Positions 1-55,194 of a stretch of 64,000 bases of DNA are shown in pieces. Source of the DNA: Escherichia phage Bp7; the sequence record NC_019500.1. One strand, written 5' to 3'. Position 1 is the stretch's first letter. Each line of letters opens with the position of its first letter. The notes under the pieces were generated by a model, which had not been told where the DNA came from, did no database searches, and saw only the letters and a program-made list of their open reading frames with translations. The position numbers and the translations under genes are program-made.

Positions 1-586
1 AAAGTATTAATCGACCAAGCAGCTGCTGAGTTCGTAAGTAATGCCGAAGAGATTGCCGCGCTTCAAGCAGAGCTTGATAAAATCGTCTCTACCAAATCCA
101 CATTGGTAATGGAAAAATATCATCGTGGAATTCTGACAGAATGTTGAAGGATACTGGTATTAAAGGTTCCATTATTAAGAAATACATCCTATCTTTAATA
201 AGCAGATAAATTCTTATTTGAAGATTATGGAAGCCGACTACGTCTTTACACTAGACGAAGAGTTCAATGAGACGATTAAATCACGTGGACGTGAAGACTT
301 TAGTTATGCTTCATTTTCACAGGGTGAGAAAGCACGTATTGATATCGCACTACTTTTTACATGGCGTGATATTGCTGAAAAAGTCAGTGGAGCCACATTA
401 GTACATTAGTGTTGGATGAAGTTTTGATGAGCAGTTGACGCTGAGGCTGTTAAGGCGATTGCAAGTATTCTTAATAATCTTGAAGACAGTAATGTTTTTA
501 TAATCAGCCACAGGGACCATGACCATCAAGCATATGGCCAGCATTTACAAATGAAAAAGGTTGGTCGATTTACAATTATGGAATAA
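1..586 (+). pseudogene. 46: gene 46 recombination endonuclease subunit (SbcC/Rad50-like ATPase), 3' end; reading frame interrupted at about 141, 189, 395-410 and 420-430
   Basis: Conserved segments HRGILTE / MLKDTGIKGSIIKKYI / PIFNKQINSYLKIMEADY / SQGEKARIDIALLF (signature motif) / LVLDEV (Walker B) / NVFIISHRDH lie in three different frames, with stops in every frame around 407-430. Confidence 0.6.
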
Positions 587-5443: not shown

Positions 5444-5446
5444 GCA

Positions 5447-5468
5447 AAGGGACTTCGGTCCCTTTTGG
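5447..5468 (+). terminator. UUCG-tetraloop hairpin followed by a U-run (intrinsic terminator or gene 43 leader structure)
   Basis: aagggacTTCGgtccctttt. Confidence 0.45.
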
Positions 5469-14969: not shown

Positions 14970-16393
14970 AAACTATTTTGGCTCAACTGCTAGGCAATAG
15001 TGATTATTTCACTAAGGTCTGGCCTTATATGAATGATTCTTATTTTGACCAGGGTCCTGCAAAGACCCTTTTCAAAGAAATTAAAAAACACGTCAATGAA
15101 TATAATGCAGTGCCTTCTAAGAACGCGCTGAGCATTGCATTAGATAACAGTACGCTTTCAGAAGTTGAACATCAAGGCGCTAAAGAGCTTTTAAGTTCAC
15201 TGAATGCCGGACCTGAAGACCAAGAATGGTTGGTTAAAGAGACGGAGAAATACGTTCAGAAAGCAGCGATGTATAATGCAACTTCAAAAATCATTGAAAT
15301 CCAAACTAATGCCGACCTTCCGGTTGAGCAACAAAATAGAAAACTTCCAGGTATTGGTGCTATTCCGGATATCATGCGTGATGCATTATCGATTTGTTTC
15401 GATTCTGAATTAGGTCATGACTGGATGGATGACTATGAAGAACGTTTCAAAAGTTATTCTGATAAAGCACGTAAGGTTCCGTTCCGTCTTAATATTCTGA
15501 ATAAGATTACCAAAGGTGGTGCCGAGTTTGGTACTGAAAACGTATTGTTGGCAGGAACAAACGTAGGTAAGTCTCTTGGTCTTTGTTCATTGGCTGCTGA
15601 TTATCTTCAATCTGGTTACGATGTTCTTTATATCTCCATGGAGATGGCAGAGGAAGTATGTGCTAAGCGTATCGATGCCAACCTTCTGGATGTATCACTG
15701 GATGATATCGATGATGGCCACGTCTCTTGGCCTGAATATAAAGCTAAGATGGATAAATGGCGTTCAACTGCTACTTTAGGTCGTTTAAAGATTAAACAGT
15801 ATCCTACTGGTGGTGCTAATGCCGATACATTCCGTGCATTATTAAACGAATACAAGCTCAAACAAAACTTTGTCCCTCAGGTTGTTATCGTCGACTACTT
15901 GGCTATCTGCGCATCGTCTCGTACGAAAGTTTTCTCTGAAAACAGTTACGGATTGATTAAGATGGTTGCTGAAGAACTACGTGGACTTGCAGTAGAGAAG
16001 AAATTATTGCTGTGGACAGCCGCCCAGACTACTCGTGGTGCAAACGTTGCAGCCGAAATCGATATGGCTGATATTGCTGAATCATTTGGTATTGCACATA
16101 CTGCAGACTTCATGTTGGGTGTGGTCGAGACAGAAGAGTTTGCTCAGATGGGTATGCAGATGGTTAAGCAGCTTAAATCTCGTTATGGTGATAAGAGCTA
16201 CTACAACAAATTTAAGATTGGTGTTAAGAAAGGAAATCAGCGTTGGTACGAAGTTGAAGATGATTCCAACCCGGGCCCAGTGAACACTGTTCGTGAGGCC
16301 ACAGGTGAGATGAATCGTCAAGCCGAGGTCAATCGACAGACGCGTGTTAATAGAAGTGATTTGGACGATTTAGCAGCATCTATCAAATTTTAA
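14954..16393 (+). CDS. 41: gp41 replicative DNA helicase (DnaB-like)
   Basis: 479 aa; LAGTNVGKSLGLCSLAADYL Walker A; co-linear with T4 gp41. Confidence 0.95.
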   Translation: MVEVVETILAQLLGNSDYFTKVWPYMNDSYFDQGPAKTLFKEIKKHVNEYNAVPSKNALSIALDNSTLSEVEHQGAKELLSSLNAGPEDQEWLVKETEKYVQKAAMYNATSKIIEIQTNADLPVEQQNRKLPGIGAIPDIMRDALSICFDSELGHDWMDDYEERFKSYSDKARKVPFRLNILNKITKGGAEFGTENVLLAGTNVGKSLGLCSLAADYLQSGYDVLYISMEMAEEVCAKRIDANLLDVSLDDIDDGHVSWPEYKAKMDKWRSTATLGRLKIKQYPTGGANADTFRALLNEYKLKQNFVPQVVIVDYLAICASSRTKVFSENSYGLIKMVAEELRGLAVEKKLLLWTAAQTTRGANVAAEIDMADIAESFGIAHTADFMLGVVETEEFAQMGMQMVKQLKSRYGDKSYYNKFKIGVKKGNQRWYEVEDDSNPGPVNTVREATGEMNRQAEVNRQTRVNRSDLDDLAASIKF

Positions 16394-16417
16394 GGAGCTT
16401 CGGCTCCTTTTTTGTTT
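16393..16417 (+). terminator. intrinsic terminator with UUCG tetraloop
   Basis: aggagcTTCGgctcc followed by tttttgtttt. Confidence 0.6.
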
Positions 16418-21444: not shown

Positions 21445-21449
21445 TTATA

Positions 21450-21477
21450 AGGAACCTTCGGGTTCCTTTTTTGGTTT
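21450..21477 (+). terminator. intrinsic terminator with UUCG tetraloop
   Basis: aggaaccTTCGggttcc followed by ttttttggtttt. Confidence 0.6.
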
Positions 21478-24521: not shown

Positions 24522-25270
24522 ATGCCTACTATTAAAACTAACGATGAATTTGAGTTAAAGGTTTACAAACGTCGCGAACACACTAAAGCCTCTGCCAAAA
24601 AACGTGGTAAGGACTTTAACCTGTCTAGTAAGTACGTTCGTAGACTTCTTGAACAAAAAGTGTGTGCATATTCAGGCGAGCGCTTTGATGAGAATTCAGA
24701 TAAAGATAAGATTTCGTTTGAACGCTTTAACAACGATATAGGTTATATCGAAGGTAATGTAATCCCGGTTAAAGTTAAGTACAACGGGTTGCGAGCTGAT
24801 TTGTCTTTAGATGAATTGAAACGTGCACAGACTCGTTTAGCGTCCCGTATTTCAGGTGGTTCTAAAATGCCTAATAGTTTTAAAGTTACCCCAGATAATT
24901 ATTATAAAATTCGTAAAATAGTTAAAAATATTAAAGATACCCAAAGAGGTCTTAAAAAGCGTGAAAAACGTCTTAAGGACCTTATTAAATCAGGAGCCAC
25001 TGATAATACCCCTTCTGTCATCGCGGTTAAGGCCCGTATCCATGGTTCTAACGCTTCAATAGGTACTATGGAAAAGGGTCTCAAATCTATATTGGTGGGC
25101 CTGATTGGCGTGTCAAGTTTAAATTGTCTGAAGCAGAAACGCGTTACTATATGTATGATAAAATTATTCAAGGTCTGGAGCGTTTAGAACACCTTTCTTT
25201 TATTGACAAAATGAAGTTGAAAAAAGGTCTTCCGCTGAATGCTTCAATTTTTTCACTGATTAGAGGTTAA
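24522..25270 (+). CDS. hypothetical protein (srd position) with an apparent single-base frameshift near 25074-25079
   Basis: Frame-0 ORF 24522..25187 and an ATG-less frame-2 ORF 25052..25270 overlap; they join if one base is added in gaaaaggg. Confidence 0.3.
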
Positions 25271-27850: not shown

Positions 27851-27877
27851 CTACCCTATCAACATGAGGAGAACAAA

Positions 27878-28351
27878 ATGAAAATTTATCGAGTGGAGTC
27901 ATCGTTTAGTATCTTAGACAACAGCGATGTTATCACAATCACTCGTCATCAATGTCGCCAATTAACCCCGTATAGAGGCTCATTTGACGAATGGAGTGAA
28001 GGTTGGTTATTGGAAGTAGGTTTCGACAGACCTAATTTTAGACACCATCATACCAATAATAAAAATATTCCATTACCAAGTCAAGACGAATTGTTGGTTA
28101 AAAATTCTAATATGGTAATTAAAACCAAATTCGAACATGAAGATTATAAAGGTGTAGATAACTACATTCCAGGTTGGTTTGTCAATCTCTACCATTTTGC
28201 TTTTGCCAGCGAGTATGATATGATGCGCTGGTTCACTCGTGAAGAGCGTGCTGAATTATCTTCTAAAGGATTTTACCTTGCTGTTACGAAATACCTGAAG
28301 ATGAGTTGTCATTGGTGGCCGCCAAGTAAGGTTCCGCAAATCCCATGCTGA
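27878..28351 (+). CDS. hypothetical protein
   Basis: 157-aa ORF. Confidence 0.35.
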   Translation: MKIYRVESSFSILDNSDVITITRHQCRQLTPYRGSFDEWSEGWLLEVGFDRPNFRHHHTNNKNIPLPSQDELLVKNSNMVIKTKFEHEDYKGVDNYIPGWFVNLYHFAFASEYDMMRWFTREERAELSSKGFYLAVTKYLKMSCHWWPPSKVPQIPC

Positions 28352-28493
28352 ACTCGTAGATTTATGAATGAGAACAATATGAAATTTAATTACAACCCTA
28401 AATACACCCCGAATCCAGCAGCTAAACTGATTGATTTGATGTTTTAAGCACTTATGTATGCCTGTTAAACCACTGGAAATTAAGGAACCTGCT

Positions 28494-28928
28494 ATGAATA
28501 CTCAGACTATCGAAATCGGCAAAACCTACAAACTGGTTGAACGTGAAATTAAAACTAAGGCCTTGATTTCTGGCCATAAAACTCTGACTGAGGTTTTTGG
28601 CGAAGGCGAATTTATTGTTGAAGAATTTACCAAAAGTGACTGGTTTACTAAATCTTACGTCATCCACGGCCGTCGATTAGATAATAACAAAATAGAGAAA
28701 ATCTTGGTTTATGAAGCAGAGTTCATCCTGTTCCAAGAAGTTGAAGTCGAACAAGACCCTACTGACCTGCTGTGTGCTGCTGTGTCTATCCGTCGTCCTT
28801 TTGATAATCCTATCTGTGGATGGGTAACAGACCAATGGGTTGAAGATGGGGTTGAGCTGCTGAACGTTGTACATGCTGGTGATTTTAGTGTAGTACCTCG
28901 TAGTGCAGTGGTTAATGTATTGAATTAA
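28494..28928 (+). CDS. hypothetical protein, paralogue A (shared C-terminal WVEDGVELLNVVHAGDFSVVP module)
   Basis: C-terminus matches that of the 29002 ORF. Confidence 0.35.
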   Translation: MNTQTIEIGKTYKLVEREIKTKALISGHKTLTEVFGEGEFIVEEFTKSDWFTKSYVIHGRRLDNNKIEKILVYEAEFILFQEVEVEQDPTDLLCAAVSIRRPFDNPICGWVTDQWVEDGVELLNVVHAGDFSVVPRSAVVNVLN

Positions 28929-33061: not shown

Positions 33062-33063
33062 TA

Positions 33064-33083
33064 AGGGCCTTCGGGCCCTTTTC
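33064..33083 (+). terminator. UUCG-tetraloop hairpin
   Basis: aagggccTTCGggccctttt. Confidence 0.45.
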
Positions 33084-41291: not shown

Positions 41292-41391
41292 GCCTTGGAG
41301 TCGAGTTCTTGTTACTCTGTATCTTTGCTGTTATCCTAGGCCTGGCGACAGGCTTAGCTATAGGTTTAATAGCAGCCAACTTTAAAAAGTA

Positions 41392-41417
41392 AGGAACCTT
41401 CGGGTTCCTTTTTTGGG
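41392..41417 (+). terminator. intrinsic terminator with UUCG tetraloop
   Basis: aggaaccTTCGggttcc followed by ttttttgggttt. Confidence 0.6.
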
Positions 41418-41820: not shown

Positions 41821-42455
41821 ATGTCTAAAATTACTTATATCATCAAAGCTTCTGAAGACGCCCTGAATGAAAAAACGGCTTCGATCTTAGTACATATCAT
41901 CAAGCATAACTTCATCACTTCAGGCGAAGTCCGTGAAGCCCTGAGTGAGCAATTTAGTGCTGCGGTAGTTAACTCTAATATCGGTGTATTAATTAAGAAA
42001 GGATTCATCGAAAATCTGGTGACGGACTAGTGGCTACAGGTGAAGCAATGGACCTAGTTCAAAAAGCTGCTGACTTGTTCGCTTCTGAAAATGCTCCAGA
42101 GATGTTGGAAAAACGTAAAACGCGTAGTTCACGTGGTGTTACTCCTGAAATGGTAACACTGGCTGATGAAGTTAAAGCTTTATTAGAAGACCGTATCGAG
42201 ATTCGTGAAATTGCTGAAAACCGTAGCAACCTTGAAGTTCGATTCGCTAAACGTACCAACGGTATTCGTCAAATCGAAGTCCGTCGTGATGGAATGATGC
42301 GTATCTTCGGTTATAATATGACTGATAAAGAAAAACAAGTGTTTACTTCCTTGAATCTTGATGTTAAGATTAAGACTGGTGGTAAGAATACTTATATCGA
42401 CTTCCAAAACGTATCATCTGAAGTTATCAAAACCGTAACCAACGCAATTATCTGA
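41821..42455 (+). CDS. motA: MotA middle-transcription activator, split by a -1 frameshift in an A4 run at 42011-42014
   Basis: N-terminal part MSKITYIIKASEDALNEKTASILVHI...GVLIKKGFIE, then KSGDGLVATGEAMDLV... in the -1 frame; C-terminal part RIFGYNMTD; T4 MotA is 211 aa. Confidence 0.6.
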
Positions 42456-44203: not shown

Positions 44204-44479
44204 ATGACTAAAATTGAAATTGTTTCCGAAATTGCTACTATTGTTTCCATTTTGATTAAAACGGATTGTGAAGACATCATGCAACGTCGTGATGAGTTTA
44301 TTGCCTTTTTGAATGAGTTAGGTATTCGTAATGAACATGGAAAGGAACTTAATGGTTTGTCTTATAACAAATTATTTAAGTCATTAACTGAAGATGAACG
44401 TGATACTCTTATTGAGCAATTTAATGAAGGGTATGAAGATATACACCGCTATCTAATGATGTATACCTCCAATTTTTAA
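44204..44479 (+). CDS. asiA: AsiA anti-sigma70 factor
   Basis: 91 aa; EFIAFLNELGI...LIEQFNEGYEDIHRYLMMYT resembles T4 AsiA. Confidence 0.7.
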   Translation: MTKIEIVSEIATIVSILIKTDCEDIMQRRDEFIAFLNELGIRNEHGKELNGLSYNKLFKSLTEDERDTLIEQFNEGYEDIHRYLMMYTSNF

Positions 44480-45129
44480 CGAGTTCGACCTAATGTCCTC
44501 CCGGCTTGACCACACATAGACGAAAGTCTAGGAAATCCTAAATCCGGTTTGACATCGTACCAGTACAACGATATCGAGCCGGAGTAGACGTTATCCAAAT
44601 TAAAAAACGGGCACGAAAACATATACGTGAATTGTGTTTTCTTCTTTGTAGGAAGGAACACAGTTTCGGTACTTGATTCAAAATAGTTCCCGTTAACTCC
44701 CGCCATATATTCTATTGACGTTTTGTCAATTGGAAACCCTCCCGTGTTTTTTGCGTCTACCGTTTCCGGTAATTTACCCTCATAAGCCACCATATCCACA
44801 AAATAATTCATGTTGGTCGGCCTAAAAGAATATATTGCTGTGAAGTCTGCACCTGAAGAAGAATGCACTATTCGGAGCTGCTCGATAGCCGCAATTTTAA
44901 ATCTATTGTCCTGGTCTTGTCTAATCATTTCAGTATAAGAGGCATAAGTAGTCTCTTTATAAAAGTTTAGAATATACTCGCCTTTATACCAAACCAATGC
45001 CATAAAGAACAATAATATTACGACTAGGACCCGGGAAAAAACTACTTTCCCGGAAGAAGTATCTTTAAAAATTCTATCAAGAAGTCCAAAAAGTAGGTCT
45101 GATAATGAAAATCCTACTTTTGGTTCCAT
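44476..45129 (-). CDS. t: holin T
   Basis: 217 aa; SDLLFGLLDRIFKD, one N-terminal TM, FAVYSFRP-like and ICAQAARILGR-like motifs resembling T4 gpt. Confidence 0.85.
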   Translation of the reverse strand: MEPKVGFSLSDLLFGLLDRIFKDTSSGKVVFSRVLVVILLFFMALVWYKGEYILNFYKETTYASYTEMIRQDQDNRFKIAAIEQLRIVHSSSGADFTAIYSFRPTNMNYFVDMVAYEGKLPETVDAKNTGGFPIDKTSIEYMAGVNGNYFESSTETVFLPTKKKTQFTYMFSCPFFNLDNVYSGSISLYWYDVKPDLGFPRLSSMCGQAGRTLGRTR

Positions 45130-45157
45130 ACTTTTCTCCTTTAAAGATATTTATAAT

Positions 45158-45949
45158 TTAATACTTTCGTATTATAACCAAGAGCCATAGATAGCGCCTG
45201 TAGCGCCCCACGTTGGAGACTTCCGAATACCGCTCTACCAGGAGCACCACCGCCAGATCTAGATAAGTGATTATCCCATCCTCTCCGCCCCGACCTCCAG
45301 CATCACCGCCATTGCCTCCGCCGAATTGGGAAGTGTAACCGGCACCACCCGGGGCGTCATAACTAGCATTACCACCCGGCCAATTAACGCCGCCTCCACC
45401 GATGCCAAATGGTCTACCACCACCGCCACCTGCTGTAGCATTTGGCGCCCAGCTATTCTGTAATGACACTGCACCACCACCGCCGCCGCCTGATGCAATA
45501 ACGCCATAGTTCCAAATACGAAGTCTTCCGCCGATATCATTTTGGATTACATCGCCGCCATTTGTGCCAGGGTTTCCGTTTACAGTACCGTTACCACCTC
45601 GTCCCCACATATGAACTCCACCATGAATATTCAAAGTAACATATTCGTTAGGGGTATCACCGTACATAAAGAACAATGGAACATCTTTAGTATATGATAC
45701 TAAGTTGCCTGTGATATTAAACACTATAGGAGCACCACCAGCTTCAAAACAACGGTCTCTAAACCACTGCCCGTTAAAGTTATGGTCTGCTCCGAGCGTG
45801 TGAATAATCTCACGAGACCGACCTGCAAATTGAGACATCCAAGATGGGTTACCAAGACGCAATTCTCTAGAAGCGGCCGTCATCCAACGTTGACCTGTTT
45901 CAGCCACTGCTGATGTTCCAATCCAACCAGGAATTCCTACTACTGCCAT
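45158..45949 (-). CDS. 38: gp38 receptor-recognising adhesin, T2-type with glycine-rich repeats
   Basis: 263 aa; multiple GGGGG tracts separated by short variable segments; immediately downstream of gene 37. Confidence 0.7.
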
Positions 45950-45959
45950 AAAAACCTCC

Positions 45960-45975
45960 AGGGCCCGAAGGCCCT
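45960..45975 (-). other. intercistronic UUCG hairpin between 37 and 38, directly before the gp38 RBS
   Basis: minus strand agggccTTCGggccct then ggaggtttttATG. Confidence 0.35.
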
Positions 45976-45978
45976 TTC

Positions 45979-48900
45979 TTATAATAATGATTTAATTAAT
46001 GCTTTCAATTCAGCAATTTCAGATTTCAATTCCTTGATTTCGTCAGTATGCTCATTGATAGTAGCAGTATTTAAACCGATAATACCGTTATAGTTTAAAC
46101 GAAGTAAGCCAGTCTCTTTATCTTCGGTCACAAGTTCAGGCAATACTTCTTGAACTTCCTGAGCAATTAAACCTGCTGACGGTTTAACTTCGTCAGTAAC
46201 AGAGTTTTTAAGCAGATAAGTATAACCACCTAAGAGTTTGGATTTCTCTTGAGCGTTATCAATAAGCTTAATTTCAGACTTACAACGAATATCAGAACGA
46301 ATATAAACGTCGTTAACATCAATGTTATCACGAACATACATACCAGCGTTAACGTTAAGGGCCACGTCGCCAAATGTCTGGGCAAGTCCGGCTCGAATAC
46401 TGAATACACCTTGGCCATTAGCATACATGTTGTATATACCATCGGATTCCCAGACCAATCCAGTGTCAGCGTCACCAATTGCTATGCATGGCCCAGTCCA
46501 GGCGGGTTCAACACCTACGCCAATACCCGCCCAACCCGAAACAATTCTTCCCGGGGAAGTAAACTGCCCGTTGGCCAAAAATTGATAAATCGCCGCAGGA
46601 TGACCACTTTCCGGGGTATTTTCTGATGAACGGACAATTATACAACCAGTACCCCAGTCAGCATTACCACTGCGTAACGAGCCTAGTTCTACGCTTGTGT
46701 GATATCCATGCCCTGCTGAAGAACTTCGTCCTTTAATAATAGGATAGTACACGTTCCCGTTTAATTCGCCGTGTTCTACAAATATAGGGGCTTCAAGGCC
46801 ATACTGTGGATTAATAGCCCCAGCGTTTTGAGAGACCCATCTAGTAGCATTAACGTACATGCGGTTTTGGCTCATATTAACCAAACCAAACCCGCCCGGG
46901 CTAAATCCGATTGTCCTGTTATCTGATAAATCAATACCGGTAGTTGTTTTGTAGTTATAAAAAGATACTGAACCGCTTTCACCACCTTTACCAACAAACC
47001 AACTATTAGCACCACCAACTTCTGAACGAATATGCGAACTATTAGTGGCATTAGGTGCTCTAATTACTAAAGCATCATCGGCCGCAGCAATAGTCAGCTT
47101 ACCGGTCATCGTGTCACCTTCTTTAGAAACACGAGTAGCTATTGCATCACGAATGTTAGTTATATTACCTGCACCATTAAATCCGTTCCAAATGTCAGAG
47201 AAAATATTACCATTTCCAGCAATAATAGCTTTGCCGCCGCCGACCTCCACGTGTTCCGGGAAGTTAACTGTACCGTCAGCATTAAATCTTGAGGTATGAC
47301 CTCCGGTCCCGTCTTCTTTTAAATGATGTAAAACAAAAGTACCAGATTCTATTTCAGTACCTAAAGACCAAACTGCTTTTCCTTGTAAGAATTTCTGCTT
47401 GACAATAGGATAATATTTACTTACTGCGTCATCATCGATTTCCTGGAAAATAGGAGCTGCTTGAACATATTGAATATCATATCCACCGGCACCGGCGCCG
47501 TGACCAGTAAATTTAATATACCCGTTTGCTGCGAACGTATTGTAACTTGATTGTAAATCTGGAATAGTAACTTTACCAGTATCTAAAGCCAAACTAAATG
47601 GACGAAGTGGTCCGATATCACCAGTTTTACCTTCGCCAAAGGCGGTAGGAATAATATGAAGACTTCCTTCCGAACGGCGGAAAATGGCACCGTAGTCGTC
47701 GTTCCAAATTCTAAGGGCATTGACAGCATTACCAGCAATAGTACCGGATACGTTAACTTCTTCACCTACATTTATGCTTTCGTTTACACCTAAGGTGCCG
47801 TTTAAATGGCTTTGAATAGCACCTGAAGTCAGACGTTGATAATATTGAATCCAACTAGTGGCATCAGATATTTCCATTACGTTTTTGCGGTCACCTGCGA
47901 CATTAGTAAACGTATTACCCCATACAGAAATTGTCATATTATCAACTGAACTGCTACCAGTTGTGTTACCTCTAAACATCAGCGTAGAAGCATTATTTCG
48001 ACCATCAATATTAACCGAACCACCAACAACATCAATATTACCAGGAGTAACTAACAAACCGCCGTGAGTATTAACGTTTGTAGTACCTTTACCACGGAAA
48101 TAGTGGTGATAATTACCGCCTTGATAATAACCTAAAAGAGTTTGTCCGTCACCTACCGCGTTATTATCATGATAAGTGACAACTGTCGCCAAAGCATAGT
48201 TTTCCGACGGAGGAGTGGTTAAATCGGTACCGTTTACAGAATAACCCATAACCATTTTTCTAAGACTGGTGGTTTCTGCCGGGCCGCTCAGGAAAGTTCT
48301 TGTGCCGTTGTTTACACTAAAGAAATAACCATCTTGGTGCCATTGTAAGCCGGTATCATTATCACCAAGAGCAATTGAAGCCGTTCCTAATTCAGAATAT
48401 CCTTTAGAGCCACCTGGAAGACCTACAGAAATAGAATGACCTGCTTTCAATCCGCCCGACCATGTAAATGACCAAAGATAGGCGTCTAATCCATCTCCAG
48501 CATACCAGGTTATTCCATCATTATCTTTAACTTCATGGAAAATGCCCGAACCAACTGCATTTCGCATAACACGGAGATGGTTAATAGCTGTTTCACTTTC
48601 TGCCAATGGGGTATTATCGGCCAATGAATAGATATCATAATCTCCTGCAACTTTACCGTTGGTAATAACTTTATTGGTATAAATTACCGGAGTTGATACA
48701 GATTTCCATCCAAAAACTTCAGGAGAAGAAAACACACCATTGCCTGAAAACGCATAAGTGCTTTCGCCACTTGTCGCATAATCTTGTACGCGAATATTAA
48801 CTACCTGAGTGGTCGCTCCAGCATTATTTGGCGAAAAGATAATGCCACGTTCGCGGTTATTGCCATCGAAAAAACGAACATGTGATGTACTTGAACTTTT

Positions 48901-49239
48901 TGTAATAAGTTCTCCACCCTCAGTCATAATCTGCCCGGCGGCAATAATGTCACGAGTTACACGAGCAATACCGGTTAAATTAAAATCACCGGTTTGGGTA
49001 AAGGTACCATTTAGGGTGTAATCGCCTGTCTGGTTATAGTTACCGTTATGAATAACATTGCCGTCAATATTACCACCTTTAGCAAAGCCAAGGTCGATAA
49101 TCGCTCCGGTATCGTCTTTAGTAAAAAGTAATCGGTCCTTTAAGTTAATAGCCAGTTCGCCTTCAGCCAACTGTGCCGGTGTCGGACGTACACCGGCTAC
49201 TTTACTTCTTTTAAATTGGATTTGCTTTAAAGTAGCCAT
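45979..49239 (-). CDS. 37: gp37 long tail fibre distal subunit
   Basis: 1086 aa; N-terminus [36 protein letters not shown] typical of gp37; gene order 34-35-36-37-38. Confidence 0.8.
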
Positions 49240-49247
49240 AATGCCTC

Positions 49248-49895
49248 TTAATAATAACCAAAATCTTGAATAGAATCTTTAATAACAATCTGGTCAAAAC
49301 GAGGAACGTGTCCTGCGTCAGAGGCCGGATTCAGCGAAATAAAGTTAGGAGCAGCAAGTACTCCGGTCATTGTTTGCATGTTAGTATTATTTATTTGGAC
49401 CTGTTTTGCGTTATCTACTAACGATAATCCTACTTGAGCTTTAGTAGGGGTGTTGCCTGGGCTGAATACACGACCTGATTCGTCATAAACTTGACGGAAT
49501 AATGAATCACCCATTACTGTAAGGCGTTTAGCACCTACTACTGTACTTGGGTTGAATATTATGAACGGAGTAGCGTCTTCCGTTTCATATCCAAAAGCGC
49601 CTTTAATACGGAAAGAAGCCGTGAACGGTGCTCCGCCAGTTCTTGCTCCTAATTTAATACCGTATCCATTAGTATCATTAAAGGTCAGCCCTTTTTCAAA
49701 ATACACGTTATTCTTATAATTACCACCATTTGCTTTTGAAACAAAGTCGTTATCAGTGGCTTGTGGTTTATTATATTCTGTGTAAACTTTATATGTTTTG
49801 TAAAGAAGGTCATTTGATACAGGCGTTAAGGGGAAATTACCTTGGTGCCATAATACTGAACCTCCTGCTGTAGAACCTAATTTTAAATCTGCCAT
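49248..49895 (-). CDS. 36: gp36 tail fibre hinge connector
   Basis: 215 aa; MADLKLGSTAGGSV...; position between 35 and 37. Confidence 0.65.
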   Translation of the reverse strand: MADLKLGSTAGGSVLWHQGNFPLTPVSNDLLYKTYKVYTEYNKPQATDNDFVSKANGGNYKNNVYFEKGLTFNDTNGYGIKLGARTGGAPFTASFRIKGAFGYETEDATPFIIFNPSTVVGAKRLTVMGDSLFRQVYDESGRVFSPGNTPTKAQVGLSLVDNAKQVQINNTNMQTMTGVLAAPNFISLNPASDAGHVPRFDQIVIKDSIQDFGYY

Positions 49896-49940: not shown

Positions 49941-49970
49941 TAAAAACGAAAAAGGAACCCGAAGGTTCCT
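49941..49970 (-). terminator. intrinsic terminator (UUCG tetraloop) after gene 35
   Basis: minus strand aggaaccTTCGggttcct followed by ttttcgttttt. Confidence 0.5.
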
Positions 49971-51091
49971 TAATATTTTTCTCTAAATTCGGCGACCCAA
50001 ACCTGACCAGGTTTAGTGCCTGTTTTATCATATAGCTGGGCTATGGTAGTACCCATATTTTTAGTTTCTGTACCAAAGTTCATACGAATACCGTTAACAC
50101 CAAATTCAGCAGGTTTTGGCTGAGGTTCTGATTCAGATATCTCACCGAACATAACATTTCGAACTCCGCCTTGGCCAGCCGAAGCTGTTTTTCTGGCATA
50201 AAGGGTAAAGTCTGTAGTACCTTCAGGAACCATTACTACCCGTTCAAATGTCATCCATGCACCAGCAGGAACATTGGAAGGAACTTCCATATTAACTGTC
50301 CCGGTTAAAGCACCTGAGGCATTAAAAAATCTAACAGACATCTGAGAGGTCCCGACGTCTTTTAAAGCTTGGTCACACATTAATTGAAACTTAAGGTAAA
50401 AGAATTCACCTGGCTTCATGTTATAATCTGTTAATGGGGTGGTAGGAGATTCGGTAGGAAATCGCTTAATTTCATCTCCCTCATTGCTTAGATAAGTGCT
50501 TTCGTCTTCAACAATTCTGACAGGATATCCTGTACCGCCAACGTCGCTGATATCATCAAATACCACTTCTAATGGAGTAGAAACATCTTCGACCAATACC
50601 CCATCATTATAAAGCACATGTTCCATTACTATAGCATTCCTTCCTGAAACATAAAATGCAGAATAAGATGGCTCAAACCGGTCTATTAACCATTTAGTCG
50701 GGAATGCGGTACTTCCTGCTGCACGGAACCAATCGATAAGTTTTTGTGAAGCATTTAATCTACCAGAAGATACTAAACAAACTATTCTATTGGCCGGTAT
50801 AGAATTTATATACATTATAAAAGCTTCAGAAATAACATCAAAATCTTTTGTAAAACTATAAGTTTTGTTAGCCACTATTTTAGGTTCAGCACTAACATCA
50901 ATTTCTATAAGGTTTAATCCATTTTGAAAATTCTGGGAACCGAAGTTCCCATCTTGAAATTTAACATATGCTTTTGTGGTAGACTTAGTACAACTACCCG
51001 CTATACTAAGTTTATACCTTACAGCATTGTTTTCAGATAATGTAGGAACCTGGACATATCCTTGTCCAAATTCTGCCATAAATCTTTCCAT
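49970..51091 (-). CDS. 35: gp35 tail fibre hinge
   Basis: 373 aa; position between 34 and 36. Confidence 0.65.
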   Translation of the reverse strand: MERFMAEFGQGYVQVPTLSENNAVRYKLSIAGSCTKSTTKAYVKFQDGNFGSQNFQNGLNLIEIDVSAEPKIVANKTYSFTKDFDVISEAFIMYINSIPANRIVCLVSSGRLNASQKLIDWFRAAGSTAFPTKWLIDRFEPSYSAFYVSGRNAIVMEHVLYNDGVLVEDVSTPLEVVFDDISDVGGTGYPVRIVEDESTYLSNEGDEIKRFPTESPTTPLTDYNMKPGEFFYLKFQLMCDQALKDVGTSQMSVRFFNASGALTGTVNMEVPSNVPAGAWMTFERVVMVPEGTTDFTLYARKTASAGQGGVRNVMFGEISESEPQPKPAEFGVNGIRMNFGTETKNMGTTIAQLYDKTGTKPGQVWVAEFREKY

Positions 51092-51102
51092 AATACCTCC
51101 TC

Positions 51103-54100
51103 TTATTCAATCCACTCAAACTTAACGGATTTAGTGACCGGGTCAGGAATAATACGAACGTTACCAATACGTAACCAATCAAGGATTGTAATGTTACCCA
51201 TTGTAGCGTTATCAGCAGGCAATGCACCAACCTCTTCCGCAGAAGGAGGGTTATCTGCCGTATAGACCATAGAGAACGTAGTCCATGCGTTTTTATTTTT
51301 CTGCCAGGTACGTGTATAACGAATAGTACCACCATTCAGTCCTGTAGGATAGCACACCCAATCTTGATAACATGAATCCAATGTATTACCAAACTGAGTT
51401 AACGTACCAGGATATTTAACTTCCTTATCACGAACAGAATAATCAAACCAAGTACCACGTAATTTCTGACCCGTCGTACTGAGAACTTCGTCACCAAAAC
51501 TACCGTCTTCGTTACGATAACGAATAGCCGGAGAACTAAATGCACCCGTTTCTGTCAACCAACCAGAAGCATTCCATATCTCATCAGAAACACCGGCAGG
51601 TTTAGTTTGGACCGTATCGATATTAACCTGACGTTTAGTTTTCATCGTCCAATAACCAGGGAACAGGTTAAATGTAGCCGAATCATTGATATCGACAGAC
51701 CAGAAGCCAACGGTTTCTGCAGTAGGGGCCTGGGATGCTAATGTAGGTTTAACACCAACAGAACGGACGTATTTTTGAGCAACCAAACCATTATTTGCCG
51801 ATACCTGCCCGGTAGAAACGATAGTACCTGAAGTAGTTACGTTTTGTAATGAAGACAGAGCAGAAGCATTTAATGTAGTTGTAGAAACACCGTTAGAAGT
51901 AGTTGTACCGGTGATATTAGCGTTCTTGGAAATACTAATAGAACCACTATTAACAGCAAAATCACCGGTCGTATTAAAGGTCCAGTAGAAAGATTCTAAA
52001 GAACCCGGCGATGGAAGATAATGTATTTTAAAATCACGAGTTCCGTCGTTTACAGTGCCTAAAGAGAATGTACCTTGCCCTAAACGTTGTTTAACAATAG
52101 GATGGAACTTGGCATCCGGGGTCGAATTTATCTCGGCAAAAATCGGAGCTAAAGTATCACCTTGAGAGTTCCAAGTACCTGCACCAGATTGGGGTCCTAC
52201 AAATTTAATAGATTTACCTGAGCTAACAGATACATCATTTTTAAAAGTAGAATTTCCAGTTACTTCTAGAGAACCTAAAATAGTGTTGCCGGTAATATTA
52301 GCCGTACTAGAAGACACCAGAGGAGCGGCCAGGTTCAATTGTTTTGTCAACGTTAAAGAACCATTAACCGTTTGGTCAACGTCTCTACGAATGAACTGGA
52401 GTGAATCTAGGCCATCCAATTTCTCGGAGTTCACAGCCGTAGCATTTATAGGTAAAAAGTTCTGTAAAGTTTTATTCATCTCGTAAGATGAAACAGCATA
52501 ACCTGTTTTAGGGTAGTTAGCTGCGTTCAGAACAGTATCGTCGTTCTCATAAAGGCCTGTACCTGAGTTAAATTTAACACCAGAACCGGTAACTTTATTT
52601 CCTGAATAGGTTAAAGCACCTTCGGTTAATTTAACAAATCCACGACGAAGTGCAGTAGCTTCCCAAGTGGTTTCGGTCTGTACTACATATTTTAAACCAG
52701 AAGGGCTTACAGCCAGAACTTTAGAAGTTCCTGCGGTTGTTTCGGTATTCGTTGCAACACGAATAATACCTTCAGAACTTTCAGTAGATTTTTTAGAATG
52801 TAATTTCAAAGGAGTGACGATAGTTTTATCATCAGTACCAACGTTGACTTCGGTCTGGGTCGCCAGGCGAGCAGTACCACGTTGAGTCTCATTTGCTTCT
52901 CTAATATCTAGTGTATAATGGTTCCATAAGGTTCCTGATTCAACCAAACCACTGGCTGCTGAGACAGAAGTTCTAGCGGTATCATTAAATCTTGTTTTAA
53001 TTTTCAACGGAGTTGAAATAACATTATCTAATACACCTGCATCAAATTCTACCTGTGTTGCAATTCTAGCAATACCAGTCAATCTTTCCGTAGCTTTCCT
53101 ATCATTTAACGTCTTAGGCGTTACCGCACGAGTATAATCTGTTCCAGTATCAGTCTCTGTTTGCGTAGCAATTTCAATTAACCCTGTACGAGTATCAAGA
53201 GCCACACGAGCATGTAATGTTTCAGGAGAAACAGCACTGTTGGCAAATCCACTTGCAGTTTGACCTGCGTTAACTTCAGATTGGTTAGAAAGATATACTG
53301 TACCCTGTTGAACTTGGGTAGCTTTATACTGGTCGAGAGCTTTAGGAGAAATAACCAAATTGCCTACGTTCTTATTATAAACGTTAGTACCTACAGTGTC
53401 TCTAGCAGTCGCAGGAGTGGTTCCTACAGTAGAGGTATATGTTACAATACCTGAAAGACTTTCCGAACCCTGGCGTGCTTGTAGCTTCTTAGGAGTGATG
53501 ATTGTAGTATCATCTGTACCCGTGTTAGTTTCAACTTGCGTAGCAATTTCAGCAACACCACGGCGAGTTTCGGTTGCAGTACGTTCGTTTAATTTCTTAG
53601 GAGAAATAATCAAATCGTCCTGGAATGCGAAGGTTGTGTCCTGGTTCACCTGAGCAGTAGTAGCAATACGAGCAATACCACGACGAGATTCAGTCGCTAC
53701 ACGATTAGCTAAAGTCTGTGGAGTAATTGCAAGTTCTTTCTCAGGGTTATTTTCATGGTCAACGTTTGCCTGAGTCTGCGACGCAAGGGCAATAACACCT
53801 AAACGAGCACGAGTTAAATCATCTTTAGAATCTACACGTTCTATAGTAGGAACGTTCTGAGCAACAACCCAATATTTGCCACCTGTAGTGGTGTCTTCGA
53901 TATAACTCAGTTCAATAACCGGAGTATAACTTATATCGCCATTAAAGGTCAGTACATCATTCAACACCCATTCAGTATCCGGCGGATATTCAGAACGTTT
54001 AGGGAACTGGAGCAATTGAACTGAAGAAGCAATTTTATATCCTACAGCAGCCTTAATATTTACCGTCTGAGCTTTACGGAGATAGTTCAGAGCAATCTTA

Positions 54101-55152
54101 ACGACATCACCCTGGGCTACGCCTGTAGGTAATGTGATATTAATCGTCTGCGGCGTTGTATTATTAGGACCAAAAACAATAATACTTTCGTTAGCCAAGA
54201 GTTCAACATCATCGCGAATTACACGTAAACGGGTTTTAAGGTCACCGTCCCAAACATACCATAATTTTTCGGTAGAGTTATAAACAAAGAATCCATCACC
54301 GGAGGTACGGAATTCCATGCTATGCTGTCCGGGTTTACCTAATGCAGACGAAGCATCAAACGTTTCAACGATTAAATGGAATTTACTTCCTAAACCATCG
54401 ATATCAGCGGTTTTAATAATATCGCCTTGGTTCGCATACTTAGGAAGAGTAAACTTAATTACTGCACCTGAAGTATAACGACGGAGGATGTTATCACCAG
54501 CTTGAGCTTGGAACTGGGCGGTGTTAGGTTCTACACGGATACCACGTTCTTCGTTACCTGATTCCCAGAAATGCCATAAACGGTTGGCAAAGATAATCAT
54601 ATTATAGGAAAAAGGCTTCGTAATTAAGGTCTCAGTGAACTGGTTACCGAAACGGACAATTTTCTGGTTACCACCGCCCGGAGCAGAACTAGACTGAACC
54701 TTGATTTCATTATAACCAACACGTCCACCGATATCTTTAATTACAACGGTATCGCCATCTGTAGGGTTAGGAGGCAGGGTAAATGTAGTAAAGCTAGCAG
54801 CAGAATCCACTGCAATATATTCACCAGAAGCCAGTTGGCGTGTAGGAGATGCTACGGTAATCCATTTAGGGTCAGTACGGGTAGCAGTCCAATAACCAGG
54901 TACAAAGGTTCCTGCTGGAGCATTGATATCACGTTGAGCAACCCAGATACGTTGGTCATGGATTACGGCAAACCCTTTCTTATATCCGCGCGTCTCGTCG
55001 TACGCCTGGATGGTGTTCTCATCTATAAAGAATTCAACGTTGACGCCGTCGTCTAATACATTGTAATCGGCTTTGGCAACATTGATAACTTTCTCGCCTG
55101 CAGCATCGAGTCCGGATGTAGCACGGAAGGCAGGTTTTAAAATATCGGCCAT
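51103..55152 (-). CDS. 34: gp34 long tail fibre proximal subunit
   Basis: 1349 aa; MADILKPAFRATSGLDAAGEKVINVAKADY; adjacent to rnh as in T4. Confidence 0.85.
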   Translation of the reverse strand: MADILKPAFRATSGLDAAGEKVINVAKADYNVLDDGVNVEFFIDENTIQAYDETRGYKKGFAVIHDQRIWVAQRDINAPAGTFVPGYWTATRTDPKWITVASPTRQLASGEYIAVDSAASFTTFTLPPNPTDGDTVVIKDIGGRVGYNEIKVQSSSAPGGGNQKIVRFGNQFTETLITKPFSYNMIIFANRLWHFWESGNEERGIRVEPNTAQFQAQAGDNILRRYTSGAVIKFTLPKYANQGDIIKTADIDGLGSKFHLIVETFDASSALGKPGQHSMEFRTSGDGFFVYNSTEKLWYVWDGDLKTRLRVIRDDVELLANESIIVFGPNNTTPQTINITLPTGVAQGDVVKIALNYLRKAQTVNIKAAVGYKIASSVQLLQFPKRSEYPPDTEWVLNDVLTFNGDISYTPVIELSYIEDTTTGGKYWVVAQNVPTIERVDSKDDLTRARLGVIALASQTQANVDHENNPEKELAITPQTLANRVATESRRGIARIATTAQVNQDTTFAFQDDLIISPKKLNERTATETRRGVAEIATQVETNTGTDDTTIITPKKLQARQGSESLSGIVTYTSTVGTTPATARDTVGTNVYNKNVGNLVISPKALDQYKATQVQQGTVYLSNQSEVNAGQTASGFANSAVSPETLHARVALDTRTGLIEIATQTETDTGTDYTRAVTPKTLNDRKATERLTGIARIATQVEFDAGVLDNVISTPLKIKTRFNDTARTSVSAASGLVESGTLWNHYTLDIREANETQRGTARLATQTEVNVGTDDKTIVTPLKLHSKKSTESSEGIIRVATNTETTAGTSKVLAVSPSGLKYVVQTETTWEATALRRGFVKLTEGALTYSGNKVTGSGVKFNSGTGLYENDDTVLNAANYPKTGYAVSSYEMNKTLQNFLPINATAVNSEKLDGLDSLQFIRRDVDQTVNGSLTLTKQLNLAAPLVSSSTANITGNTILGSLEVTGNSTFKNDVSVSSGKSIKFVGPQSGAGTWNSQGDTLAPIFAEINSTPDAKFHPIVKQRLGQGTFSLGTVNDGTRDFKIHYLPSPGSLESFYWTFNTTGDFAVNSGSISISKNANITGTTTSNGVSTTTLNASALSSLQNVTTSGTIVSTGQVSANNGLVAQKYVRSVGVKPTLASQAPTAETVGFWSVDINDSATFNLFPGYWTMKTKRQVNIDTVQTKPAGVSDEIWNASGWLTETGAFSSPAIRYRNEDGSFGDEVLSTTGQKLRGTWFDYSVRDKEVKYPGTLTQFGNTLDSCYQDWVCYPTGLNGGTIRYTRTWQKNKNAWTTFSMVYTADNPPSAEEVGALPADNATMGNITILDWLRIGNVRIIPDPVTKSVKFEWIE

Positions 55153-55186
55153 TTTATTTCCTTTTCGTTTTCAGGGTATAGAACTA

Positions 55187-55194
55187 TTTATAGC
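55187..55194 (-). promoter_or_regulatory. T4-type late promoter TATAAATA for gene 34
   Basis: reverse complement of tatttata, about 35 nt upstream of the gene 34 ATG. Confidence 0.45.

Follow-up and report, generated by a model that had tools for sequence, protein, structure and literature searches.

The region studied here very probably represents the distal long-tail-fibre module of Escherichia phage Bp7 (Dhakavirus; NC_019500.1) in the arrangement found in phages T2 and S16, with the 263-amino-acid length of its gp38 being an artefact of two missing bases. Within the 64,000-nucleotide stretch analysed (the window), gene 37, coding for the 1086-amino-acid distal subunit of the long tail fibre, occupies positions 45979..49239, and the gene 38 ORF as read (263 amino acids) positions 45158..45949, both on the minus strand and both where an earlier note made from the sequence alone had placed them. 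The holin gene t (44476..45129, minus strand; Phage_holin_T, E 2e-65) is the downstream neighbour of gene 38. By exact look-up, the products of these three ORFs are identical to the Bp7 proteins AEN93875.1, AEN93874.1 (YP_007004198.1) and AEN93873.1, respectively. The gene order on the minus strand is 34-35-36-37-38-t, as it is in relatives, which places gene 38 immediately after gene 37 and ahead of the holin gene, as expected for the adhesin class. This T2-type gp37-gp38 arrangement is ordinary and already known, and the adhesin interpretation has, according to a citing paper (PMC10987938), already been established experimentally for Bp7; the same paper gives gp38 as the receptor-binding protein and LamB, OmpC and core LPS as the receptors (Chen et al. 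2020, cited in PMC10987938). With 802 phage records containing a gp38 homologue, two solved structures and prior experimental work on Bp7 gp38 itself, the biological gain from the assignment is small.

Membership of gp38 in the T2/S16-type glycine-rich adhesins, as proposed in the earlier note, is supported by comparisons at the sequence level. The ORF as read matches the Pfam families GP38 (PF05268; E 1.6e-68, 231.3 bits against a cut-off of 25) and Gp38_N (PF21721; E 9.6e-21, 74 bits). Once the two bases are restored, residues 8-259 align with residues 6-249 of the 249 in S16 gp38 (6F45_D; E 1.5e-49), and the protein likewise matches the receptor-binding domain of PP01 gp38 (9V85; E 4e-73), while the accompanying gp37 carries an S74 domain as in S16. 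Several database records label homologues of this protein as 'distal long tail fiber assembly catalyst', which would make gp38 a T4-type chaperone missing from the virion and leave the role of adhesin to gp37. BLASTP comparison against T4 gp38, the outcome on which the earlier note had staked its class assignment, gave a best E value of 1.5 over 14 residues and hence no sequence similarity, in contrast to the strong matches to adhesin families and solved adhesin structures. Furthermore, Bp7 gp37 itself includes a chaperone domain, Pfam detects neither of the T4-type tip domains (Collar and Phage_fiber) in it, and a note in the RB69 record describes the gp38 of the T2 subfamily as an unrelated adhesin. 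The chaperone reading is refuted by these sequence comparisons, and the probability left to it is vanishingly small.

With the two missing bases restored, the domain layout of gp38 follows that of the adhesin class. The N-terminal attachment domain (aa 1-42; 45824..45949, minus strand; the Gp38_N match) includes the tryptophans W9, W22 and W37, which are invariant in two homologue alignments (16 and 7 sequences); in the S16 structure, the three tryptophans of the gp38 N-terminus have a role in docking on the gp37 tip (PMC6851490). Per-column conservation among 16 aligned gp38 proteins, the type of alignment recommended in the earlier note for locating the hypervariable segments, places the specificity region at approximately 45228..45607 on the minus strand. 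Five glycine-rich motifs (GRM1, aa 115-121; GRM2, 153-159; GRM3, 174-182; GRM4, 210-219; GRM5, 233-241) alternate with four hypervariable segments (HVS1, aa 122-131; HVS2, 160-173; HVS3, 183-209; HVS4, 220-232), the boundaries being our own delineation against the five-GRM/four-HVS scheme of Trojet 2011 (PMC3157838). The polyglycine tracts previously noticed in gp38 are present as runs at aa 154-159, 174-178, 184-187 and 210-212, and 35 % of the residues from aa 110 to 259 are glycine.

The length of 263 amino acids given in the earlier note does not hold. Each of the 16 other full-length homologues examined has one base more than the window between positions 45282 and 45281 (codon 223) and one more between 45219 and 45218 (codon 245), and both single-nucleotide gaps are evident in DNA alignments with NHEP11 and RB69. 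The ORF as read thus leaves the homologous frame after codon 222; it contains GRM1-4 and HVS1-3, while residues 223-263 are out of frame. No homologue was found for this 41-residue tail: the Pfam and PDB matches end at aa 221-223, with the GP38 match covering aa 47-223 and only positions 1-182 of the 218 in the profile, and in a collection of about 15 billion proteins the as-read sequence clusters with no other. The homologous reading continues through the other two frames to a TAA stop at 45174-45172, and, as reconstructed by DNA alignment with two bases added, spans 45172..45949 on the minus strand and encodes 259 amino acids. The simplest restorations would be GAG-GGA or GAT-GGA at codon 223 and AGT-TCT at codons 244-245. 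Only with this repair does the protein acquire the greater part of HVS4, the entire GRM5 and, at the C-terminus, the motif G(S/A)(S/A)P.W..G.IYG..., in which 16 of the 16 other full-length homologues end. The repaired protein covers the whole GP38 profile (1-218 of 218; E 7.5e-82, 274.8 bits) and is 97.7 % identical in a single frame to KMB38 gp38, the closest real protein, although the exact 259-residue sequence, with either Asp or Glu at residue 223, is absent from the 15-billion-protein collection. Downstream of the second break, the repaired frame differs from VR5 almost exclusively by synonymous changes at third codon positions. The real protein is therefore most likely 259 amino acids long, and the 263-residue length is not biological.

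Sequencing error is the best explanation for both frame breaks, since one-base deletions, mostly at homopolymers, also break gp46, srd and motA in the same window. Frame changes were found by tblastn inside these three and two other genes, with flanking identities of 81-100 %, and 17 of the 23 frame-shifting indels relative to LHE83 are one-base deletions in the window (one two-base), mostly in homopolymer runs. The suspect sites lie at about 42015 in motA, at 142 and 188 in gp46, at 25092 in srd and within 28284-28461. It is unlikely, by contrast, that the two deletions are real in the sequenced Bp7 stock, which would leave the last 41 residues of gp38 unrelated to the family and the adhesin defective or altered. 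The as-read sequence does provide an ORF that stays open for 41 codons, and the first missing base falls outside any obvious homopolymer in the alignment (GGAGA-GGATGG), where there would be a homopolymer only if the true base were G. Both breaks also adjoin the 3' recombination junction of the gp38 mosaic, so that a real lesion and an assembly problem look alike at this point. Against genuine deletions stands an amber mutation just before GRM5 in T6 gene 38, which gives normal-looking virions that, lacking GRM5 and the C-terminus, neither adsorb nor form plaques (PMC3157838), as well as the S16 structure, in which the gp38 chain, after the polyglycine sandwich, runs back into the beta-helix (PMC6851490). 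Bp7 is viable and forms plaques on numerous strains, and PMC10987938 gives its gp38 as the receptor-binding protein. The downstream frames retain family-typical residues and a synonymous substitution pattern, and breaks of the same kind in the conserved genes gp46 and motA would have to be real too.

Programmed recoding is less probable still. The homologous reading could be restored by two successive -1 ribosomal frameshifts along a path free of stop codons, but a slippery heptamer of the form X XXY YYZ is absent from both sites (GGA GAG GAT and GGA AGT CTC, respectively), no relative requires any shift, two sequential shifts would yield very little protein, and similar breaks are scattered over unrelated genes in the window. 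Programmed frameshifting in gene 38 was rejected on the first, second and last of these grounds, and is regarded as exceedingly improbable. Only a slight chance is given to the deletions being genuine and the adhesin nevertheless working, whether with a C-terminus that is unrelated to the family and lacks both GRM5 and the conserved strands at the end, or through two-frameshift recoding; were this so, the indispensability of GRM5 and the C-terminal motif for the gp38 fold would be overturned.

The practical value of these observations, with sequencing error as the preferred explanation, lies in curation. The deposited protein YP_007004198/AEN93874 carries a spurious 41-residue tail in place of most of HVS4, GRM5 and the C-terminal motif. 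HVS4 corresponds to loop-E of PP01, which contacts OmpC (PMC12892980), and Bp7 is in use as a reference genome for gp38 (PMC12032242). Any alignment, receptor-prediction model or recombinant construct derived from the deposited sequence is consequently wrong at the C-terminus. Given that motA, gp46 and srd are also broken in the record, the evidence suggests that the whole Bp7 genome needs resequencing.

Bp7 gp37 is 88.4 % identical to LHE83 gp37 across its full length and matches the Pfam families Gp34_trimer and gp37_trimer, both below the curated cut-offs. At its C-terminus it has an intramolecular chaperone domain of the Peptidase_S74 family (45982..46296, minus strand; PF13884, E 3.4e-12, aa 982-1038), which starts at the conserved Ser982 (codon 46296-46294) and includes Lys987 in the motif S-D-I-R-C-K. 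The protein aligns with S16 gp37 (6F45_A; E 8.7e-30), where SDRRIK is found at the same place, and the S74 domain also aligns with the self-cleaving domain of MYRF (7DC3). From what is known of the family, self-cleavage is predicted to release the 104 residues that follow Ser982. The gp37 C-terminus had been put forward, together with the variable segments of gp38, as a likely determinant of host range; this part of the proposal needs qualifying, as the last 104 residues are a chaperone domain that is predicted to be cleaved and would make no receptor contact. One citing paper does ascribe the binding of LPS to the C-terminal portion of Bp7 gp37 (PMC12323348). T4 differs in that its gp37 has the Collar and Phage_fiber tip domains and, by Pfam, no S74 domain, and its gp38, while occupying the same slot between gene 37 and gene t, has no sequence similarity to that of Bp7.

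A close structural counterpart is the S16 gp37-gp38 tip (PDB 6F45; Dunne et al. 2018). Repaired Bp7 gp38 aligns with its S16 counterpart from end to end, both ending in GSWL, and the two share the three N-terminal tryptophans and the alternation of glycine-rich motifs with variable loops, while the alignment of the gp37 proteins spans both tip and S74 chaperone, with an S-D-x-R-x-K motif in common. They differ in the hypervariable loops, in the two frame errors of the Bp7 window sequence and in receptor, this being OmpC of Salmonella for S16 as opposed to the E. coli LamB, OmpC and core LPS reported for Bp7. In Bp7, gp37 forms the trimeric distal half-fibre; by analogy with other members of the family, its last ~104 residues (S74 domain, with Ser982 and Lys987) would aid trimer folding before being cut off at the conserved serine. 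One gp38 molecule would then cap the exposed gp37 tip by means of its three-tryptophan N-terminal domain, and the HVS1-4 loops, held on the scaffold of glycine-rich motifs, would be displayed to outer-membrane porins and so set the host range. The gp38 proteins of the Tequatrovirus phages T2, T6 and PP01 belong to the same family and have the same domain order, with PP01 gp38 also comprising 259 amino acids and T6 gp38 being 77 % identical to that of Bp7 over aa 1-144. Their HVS sets and receptors differ from those of Bp7, the receptors being FadL for T2 (BASEL paper), Tsx for T6 (Trojet 2011, PMC3157838) and OmpC of O157 for PP01.

In sliding windows, the DNA of the Bp7 gp38 specificity cassette (aa ~100-222) shows 98-99 % identity to that of RB69-type Mosigvirus phages, and the gp37 body and gp38 N-terminus are of the Dhakavirus type. 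The Bp7 adhesin is thus a recombinant mosaic. Glycine-rich motifs have been proposed as the exchange points for adhesin mosaics of this kind. Identity to repaired Bp7 gp38 amounts to 97-98 % for Bas47 (AlbertHofmann), NHEP11 and KMB38 and to 89 % for RB69, which has a different N-terminal attachment subtype. HVS1-3 of RB69 and KMB38 are identical in protein sequence to those of Bp7, while Bas47 and NHEP11 each depart from them by one residue (I183L and Q164K, respectively). Within HVS4, residue 226 is Asp in Bp7 as opposed to Gly in all the Mosigvirus adhesins compared (RB69, Bas47, NHEP11 and KMB38), and residue 220 is Arg in Bp7 and Trp or Ala in some of them.

The receptors reported for these near-identical adhesins are in conflict, with OmpF given for Bas47 (PMC8594841) and OmpF, FhuA and the LPS core for RB69 (PMC3157838), as against LamB and OmpC for Bp7. 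A switch of an otherwise identical adhesin from OmpF to OmpC and LamB may be due to one or both of the residues Asp226 and Arg220 in the HVS4 region. The comparison of Bp7 with the 97 %-identical adhesin of Bas47, and with RB69 with its identical HVS1-3, bears on how few residues set the choice of porin.

In the spacer between gene 38 and gene t, a T4-type late-promoter consensus, TATAAATA, is located at 45148..45155 on the minus strand, and a second copy precedes gene 34 (55185-55192). The motif is not enriched in the window (7 found against 6.65 expected); the copies before gene t and gene 34 are presumed to be late promoters from their positions and, in part, from established knowledge of T4, rather than from motif counts.

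The stop codon of gene 37 is separated from the ribosome-binding site of gene 38 by a hairpin, AGGGCC-UUCG-GGCCCU, with a 6-bp stem (45960..45975, minus strand), so that the UUCG hairpin described in the earlier note is indeed found directly before the Shine-Dalgarno sequence GGAGG (45955..45959, minus strand), which is followed by five U and the AUG at 45949. The GGAG at gene 38 is conserved in all relatives. The hairpin folds at -12.3 kcal/mol in a 35-nt context and was also detected by a terminator-like scan. As its folding z-scores against shuffled sequences are modest (-0.86 in 61 nt and -1.63 in 35 nt), the case for it rests on conservation: 17 relatives have a hairpin at the corresponding position, and the fourth stem pair shows a compensatory change between the Bp7 type (C-G) and the RB69 type (G-C). 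The stem is conserved, while the loop is not strictly so (UUCA, CUCG, UUAG, AUU and AAC among the variants); the variants were folded one by one, the MAFFT alignment of the 37-38 spacers having put the stems out of register. It most likely acts as a stable RNA element between the two cistrons, such as one that blocks 3' decay, while leaving the ribosome-binding site of gene 38 free. A C(UUCG)G hairpin is also present at the 37-38 junction of T4; there it follows a distant GGAG and precedes the AUG, whereas that of Bp7 is upstream of a normally spaced GGAGG. The intercistronic C(UUCG)G hairpins of T4, reportedly described by Tuerk et al. in 1988, share with those of Bp7 a GC stem, a C-G pair closing the UUCG and an intergenic position, with no difference in kind. 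Across the window, CTTCGG is enriched (44 found against 19.2 expected, a count reached in 0 of 100 shuffles), and 13 C(UUCG)G hairpins with stems of 6-8 pairs occur, that at the 37-38 junction included.

Comparison of gp38, the tail-fibre tip adhesin of Bp7, with the Pfam database returned the GP38 (PF05268; E 1.6e-68) and Gp38_N (PF21721; E 9.6e-21) families, and the protein as read also matches two solved adhesins, the gp38 of Salmonella phage S16 (6F45_D) and the receptor-binding domain of PP01 gp38 (9V85), the latter determined as a GFP fusion (PMC12892980). BLASTP comparison with T4 gp38 (from NC_000866), the chaperone whose alignment the earlier note had named as counter-evidence to a T2-type adhesin, found no similarity (best E 1.5). 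In S16, gp38 docks into the gp37 trimer through three tryptophans (PMC6851490), and their counterparts in Bp7 (W9, W22 and W37) are invariant among the aligned homologues. On this sequence evidence Bp7 gp38 is classified as a T2-type adhesin, as had been claimed. The multiple polyglycine tracts described previously are likewise present, with four runs at residues 154-159, 174-178, 184-187 and 210-212, and glycine makes up 35 % of residues 110-259. Alignment of sixteen homologues, which the earlier note had called for, recovered the scheme of Trojet et al. 2011 (PMC3157838), with five glycine-rich motifs (GRMs) and four hypervariable segments (HVSs). Their approximate limits in Bp7 gp38 are residues 115-121 (GRM1), 122-131 (HVS1), 153-159 (GRM2), 160-173 (HVS2), 174-182 (GRM3), 183-209 (HVS3), 210-219 (GRM4), 220-232 (HVS4) and 233-241 (GRM5), followed by a conserved C-terminal motif (242-259); most of HVS4, all of GRM5 and the C-terminal motif appear only once the frame is repaired as described below. 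The arrangement, family, structure class and Bp7's own adhesin are already known in the literature, and the feature is an ordinary one.

The tail-fibre genes are all encoded on the minus strand, arranged 34-35-36-37-38-t, with gene 34 at 51103-55152 (-), gene 35 at 49970-51091 (-), gene 36 at 49248-49895 (-), gene 37 (1086 aa) at 45979-49239 (-), gene 38 as read (263 aa) at 45158-45949 (-) and the holin gene t (217-aa product) at 44476-45129 (-). Exact-sequence look-up identified the 263-, 1086- and 217-aa products as the deposited Bp7 proteins AEN93874/YP_007004198, AEN93875 and AEN93873, respectively. Bp7 is a Dhakavirus; among the genomes of the phage collection, LHE83 comes closest (~95 % identity over 24 kb). 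Copies of the late-promoter consensus of T4, TATAAATA, lie just 5' of gene 34 (55185-55192 (-)) and just 5' of holin t (45148-45155 (-)). Since no exact copy precedes genes 35-38 in the window, gene 38 is probably carried on a late transcript from further upstream. The product of gene 35 shows a weak Pfam match to the ILEI (interleukin-like EMT inducer) fold (E 8.5e-6; 26.6 bits, cut-off 27), probably through a shared small beta-fold or chance.

The length of 263 aa did not hold, very probably being an artefact of two one-base gaps; the repaired protein has 259 aa. The Pfam and PDB matches of the frame as read end at residues 221-223 and cover only positions 1-182 of 218 of the GP38 profile, while its 41-residue tail resembles nothing. 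DNA alignment with the Mosigvirus phages NHEP11 and RB69 places one missing base at 45282/45281 and one at 45219/45218. The homologous ending, present in all sixteen other full-length homologues, is read in the other two frames as 21 and then 15 residues, with a stop at 45174-45172. With one base restored per site, gp38 has the length of PP01 gp38, covers the whole GP38 profile (1-218 of 218; 274.8 bits, E 7.5e-82), aligns with S16 gp38 to the last residue (E 1.5e-49 vs 2.8e-42 as read) and, without any change of frame, shares 97.7 % identity with KMB38 gp38. Beyond the second break, differences from VR5 in the repaired frame are almost all third-position synonymous (CCA/CCG, ACG/ACA, GGC/GGT, GCT/GCA, TAT/TAC, TCT/TCC), so that the repaired frame is the one under selection.

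We consider it very probable that both breaks arose through sequencing error in the 2011 deposit. DNA comparison with LHE83 revealed 23 frame-shifting indels; in 17 of these the window is the sequence with the deletion (sixteen one-base, one two-base), mostly within short homopolymer runs (AAA to AA, TT to T, A5 to A4, CCC to CC). The two breaks in gene 38 likewise each lack a single base; the second is consistent with TT to T, and the first would be consistent with GGG to GG only if a G has been lost. A tblastn search with LHE83 ORFs also located frame changes in gp46, srd, two adjacent genes and motA, with flanks 81-100 % identical. Real mutations in the sequenced Bp7 stock are improbable. 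An amber mutation just 5' of GRM5 in T6 gene 38 yields particles that look normal and neither adsorb nor plaque (PMC3157838), and the S16 gp38 chain re-enters the beta-helix from the polyglycine sandwich (PMC6851490). Bp7 is viable with a broad host range, and gp38 is reported as its receptor-binding protein (PMC10987938). The protein as read forms a singleton cluster among ~15 billion sequences, and the exact repaired protein is absent from the same collection. Decoding via programmed frameshifting is extremely unlikely, because there are no slippery sites at the breaks and no relative requires the shift. The practical value of the frame finding lies in correction of the reference record.

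Elsewhere in the window, motA (activator of middle transcription; 41821-42455 (+)) is split into ORFs of 69 and 141 aa near 42012-42015, where one base is missing compared with LHE83 (A5 to A4), with 98-100 % flanking protein identity, and this split is probably a sequencing error. Gene 46, which encodes a recombination endonuclease subunit, has breaks in its 3' part (1-583 (+)) at 142 and 188, 46 nt apart (AAA to AA and TT to T), in the same double-deletion pattern as gene 38. The srd gene (24522-25267 (+)) contains one break at 25092, and two adjacent small genes (27854-28925 (+)) have six deletions within 28284-28461 (five one-base, one two-base). Over the latter two regions, the quality of the deposited sequence appears low.

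Sliding-window identities against relatives revealed a mosaic adhesin. Distal gp37 (47130-46300) is 83-100 % identical to LHE83 and ~20-84 % (mostly 40-65 %) to Mosigvirus phages, while the S74 domain, hairpin and gp38 N-terminus (46340-45800) are 89-100 % identical to LHE83/NHEP11/JS98, 82-99 % to VR5 and 41-73 % to RB69. The gp38 specificity cassette (45640-45300) is 98-99 % identical to RB69 and NHEP11 and 43-63 % to LHE83; from about 45225 the gp38 3' end and holin are again VR5/LHE83-like. The N-terminus is thus of Dhakavirus type, the cassette RB69-like and the 3' end VR5/LHE83-like, with breakpoints at about 45650 and about 45270-45230 (-); the two frame errors are near the 3' breakpoint. 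The mosaic, which keeps the gp38 N-terminal subtype together with the matching gp37 tip, corresponds to the exchange of modules already described in gp38, with the glycine-rich motifs as suggested recombination hotspots (Trojet 2011, PMC3157838).

Repaired gp38 shares 97 % identity with that of AlbertHofmann/Bas47 and has the same HVS1-3 as RB69 gp38. Bas47 reportedly needs OmpF and the LPS inner core (PMC8594841) and RB69 reportedly needs OmpF, FhuA and the full LPS core (PMC3157838), whereas Bp7 is reported to use LamB, OmpC and core LPS (PMC10987938). In the specificity region, three residues (183, 220 and 226) separate Bp7 from Bas47, and Asp226 alone separates it from RB69, which also has Arg220. 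Asp226 (HVS4) is found in Bp7 alone, at a position between the two sequence errors. The explanation is either a switch of porin choice through very few residues, an error at Asp226 itself or a lack of comparability between the assays.

The gp37 C-terminus incorporates a Peptidase_S74 intramolecular chaperone domain (residues 982-1038; Pfam E 3.4e-12), unlike T4 gp37, which has Collar and Phage_fiber domains and lacks S74. Alignment with S16 gp37 (6F45_A; E 8.7e-30) spans the tip and chaperone and sets Ser982 and Lys987 (S-D-I-R-C-K) opposite S-D-R-R-I-K. By family analogy, the last 104 residues would be freed once folded, so that the extreme C-terminus would be a folding device rather than a receptor contact. 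The earlier suggestion of the gp37 C-terminus as a host-range determinant has to be narrowed accordingly, although a citing paper attributes binding of K-12 LPS to the C-terminal part of Bp7 gp37 (PMC12323348).

A UUCG hairpin directly before the gp38 ribosome-binding site, as noted earlier, is present six bases 3' of the gene 37 stop (AGGGCC-UUCG-GGCCCU; 45975-45960 (-)), followed immediately by GGAGG and then UUUUU-AUG. Minimum-energy folding of the spacer gives this hairpin (-12.3 kcal/mol), and its z-scores are modest. All relatives examined carry a GC hairpin in the corresponding position, with GGGCC/GGCCC or GGGGC/GCCCC stems (a compensatory swap at the fourth pair) or longer G/C stems, and UUCG, UUCA, CUCG, UUAG, AUU or AAC loops. 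The 37-38 junction of T4 also has a hairpin (GGGGC-UUCG-GCCC) despite its unrelated gene 38, and therefore the element belongs to the junction and not to the adhesin class. In T4 a distant, Shine-Dalgarno-like GGAG precedes it and the AUG follows, whereas in Bp7 it is 5' of GGAGG, where it may act in RNA stability while keeping the ribosome-binding site accessible. The window contains 44 copies of CTTCGG, compared with an expectation of 19.2 (0/100 shuffles reach 44), and thirteen copies form 6-8-pair stems, mostly intergenic, including one at the gene 35/36 junction. These we take to be the known T-even C(UUCG)G hairpin population, reportedly described by Tuerk and colleagues in 1988. Examples occur at 5446-5465, 16392-16409, 21449-21468, 33063-33080 and 41391-41410 (+), and at 49971-49952 and 50951-50934 (-). 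Three of these, at 21449, 41391 and 49971(-), share one 20-nt sequence, AAGGAACCTTCGGGTTCCTT, with a T-rich stretch behind it; the last is the copy at the gene 35/36 junction.
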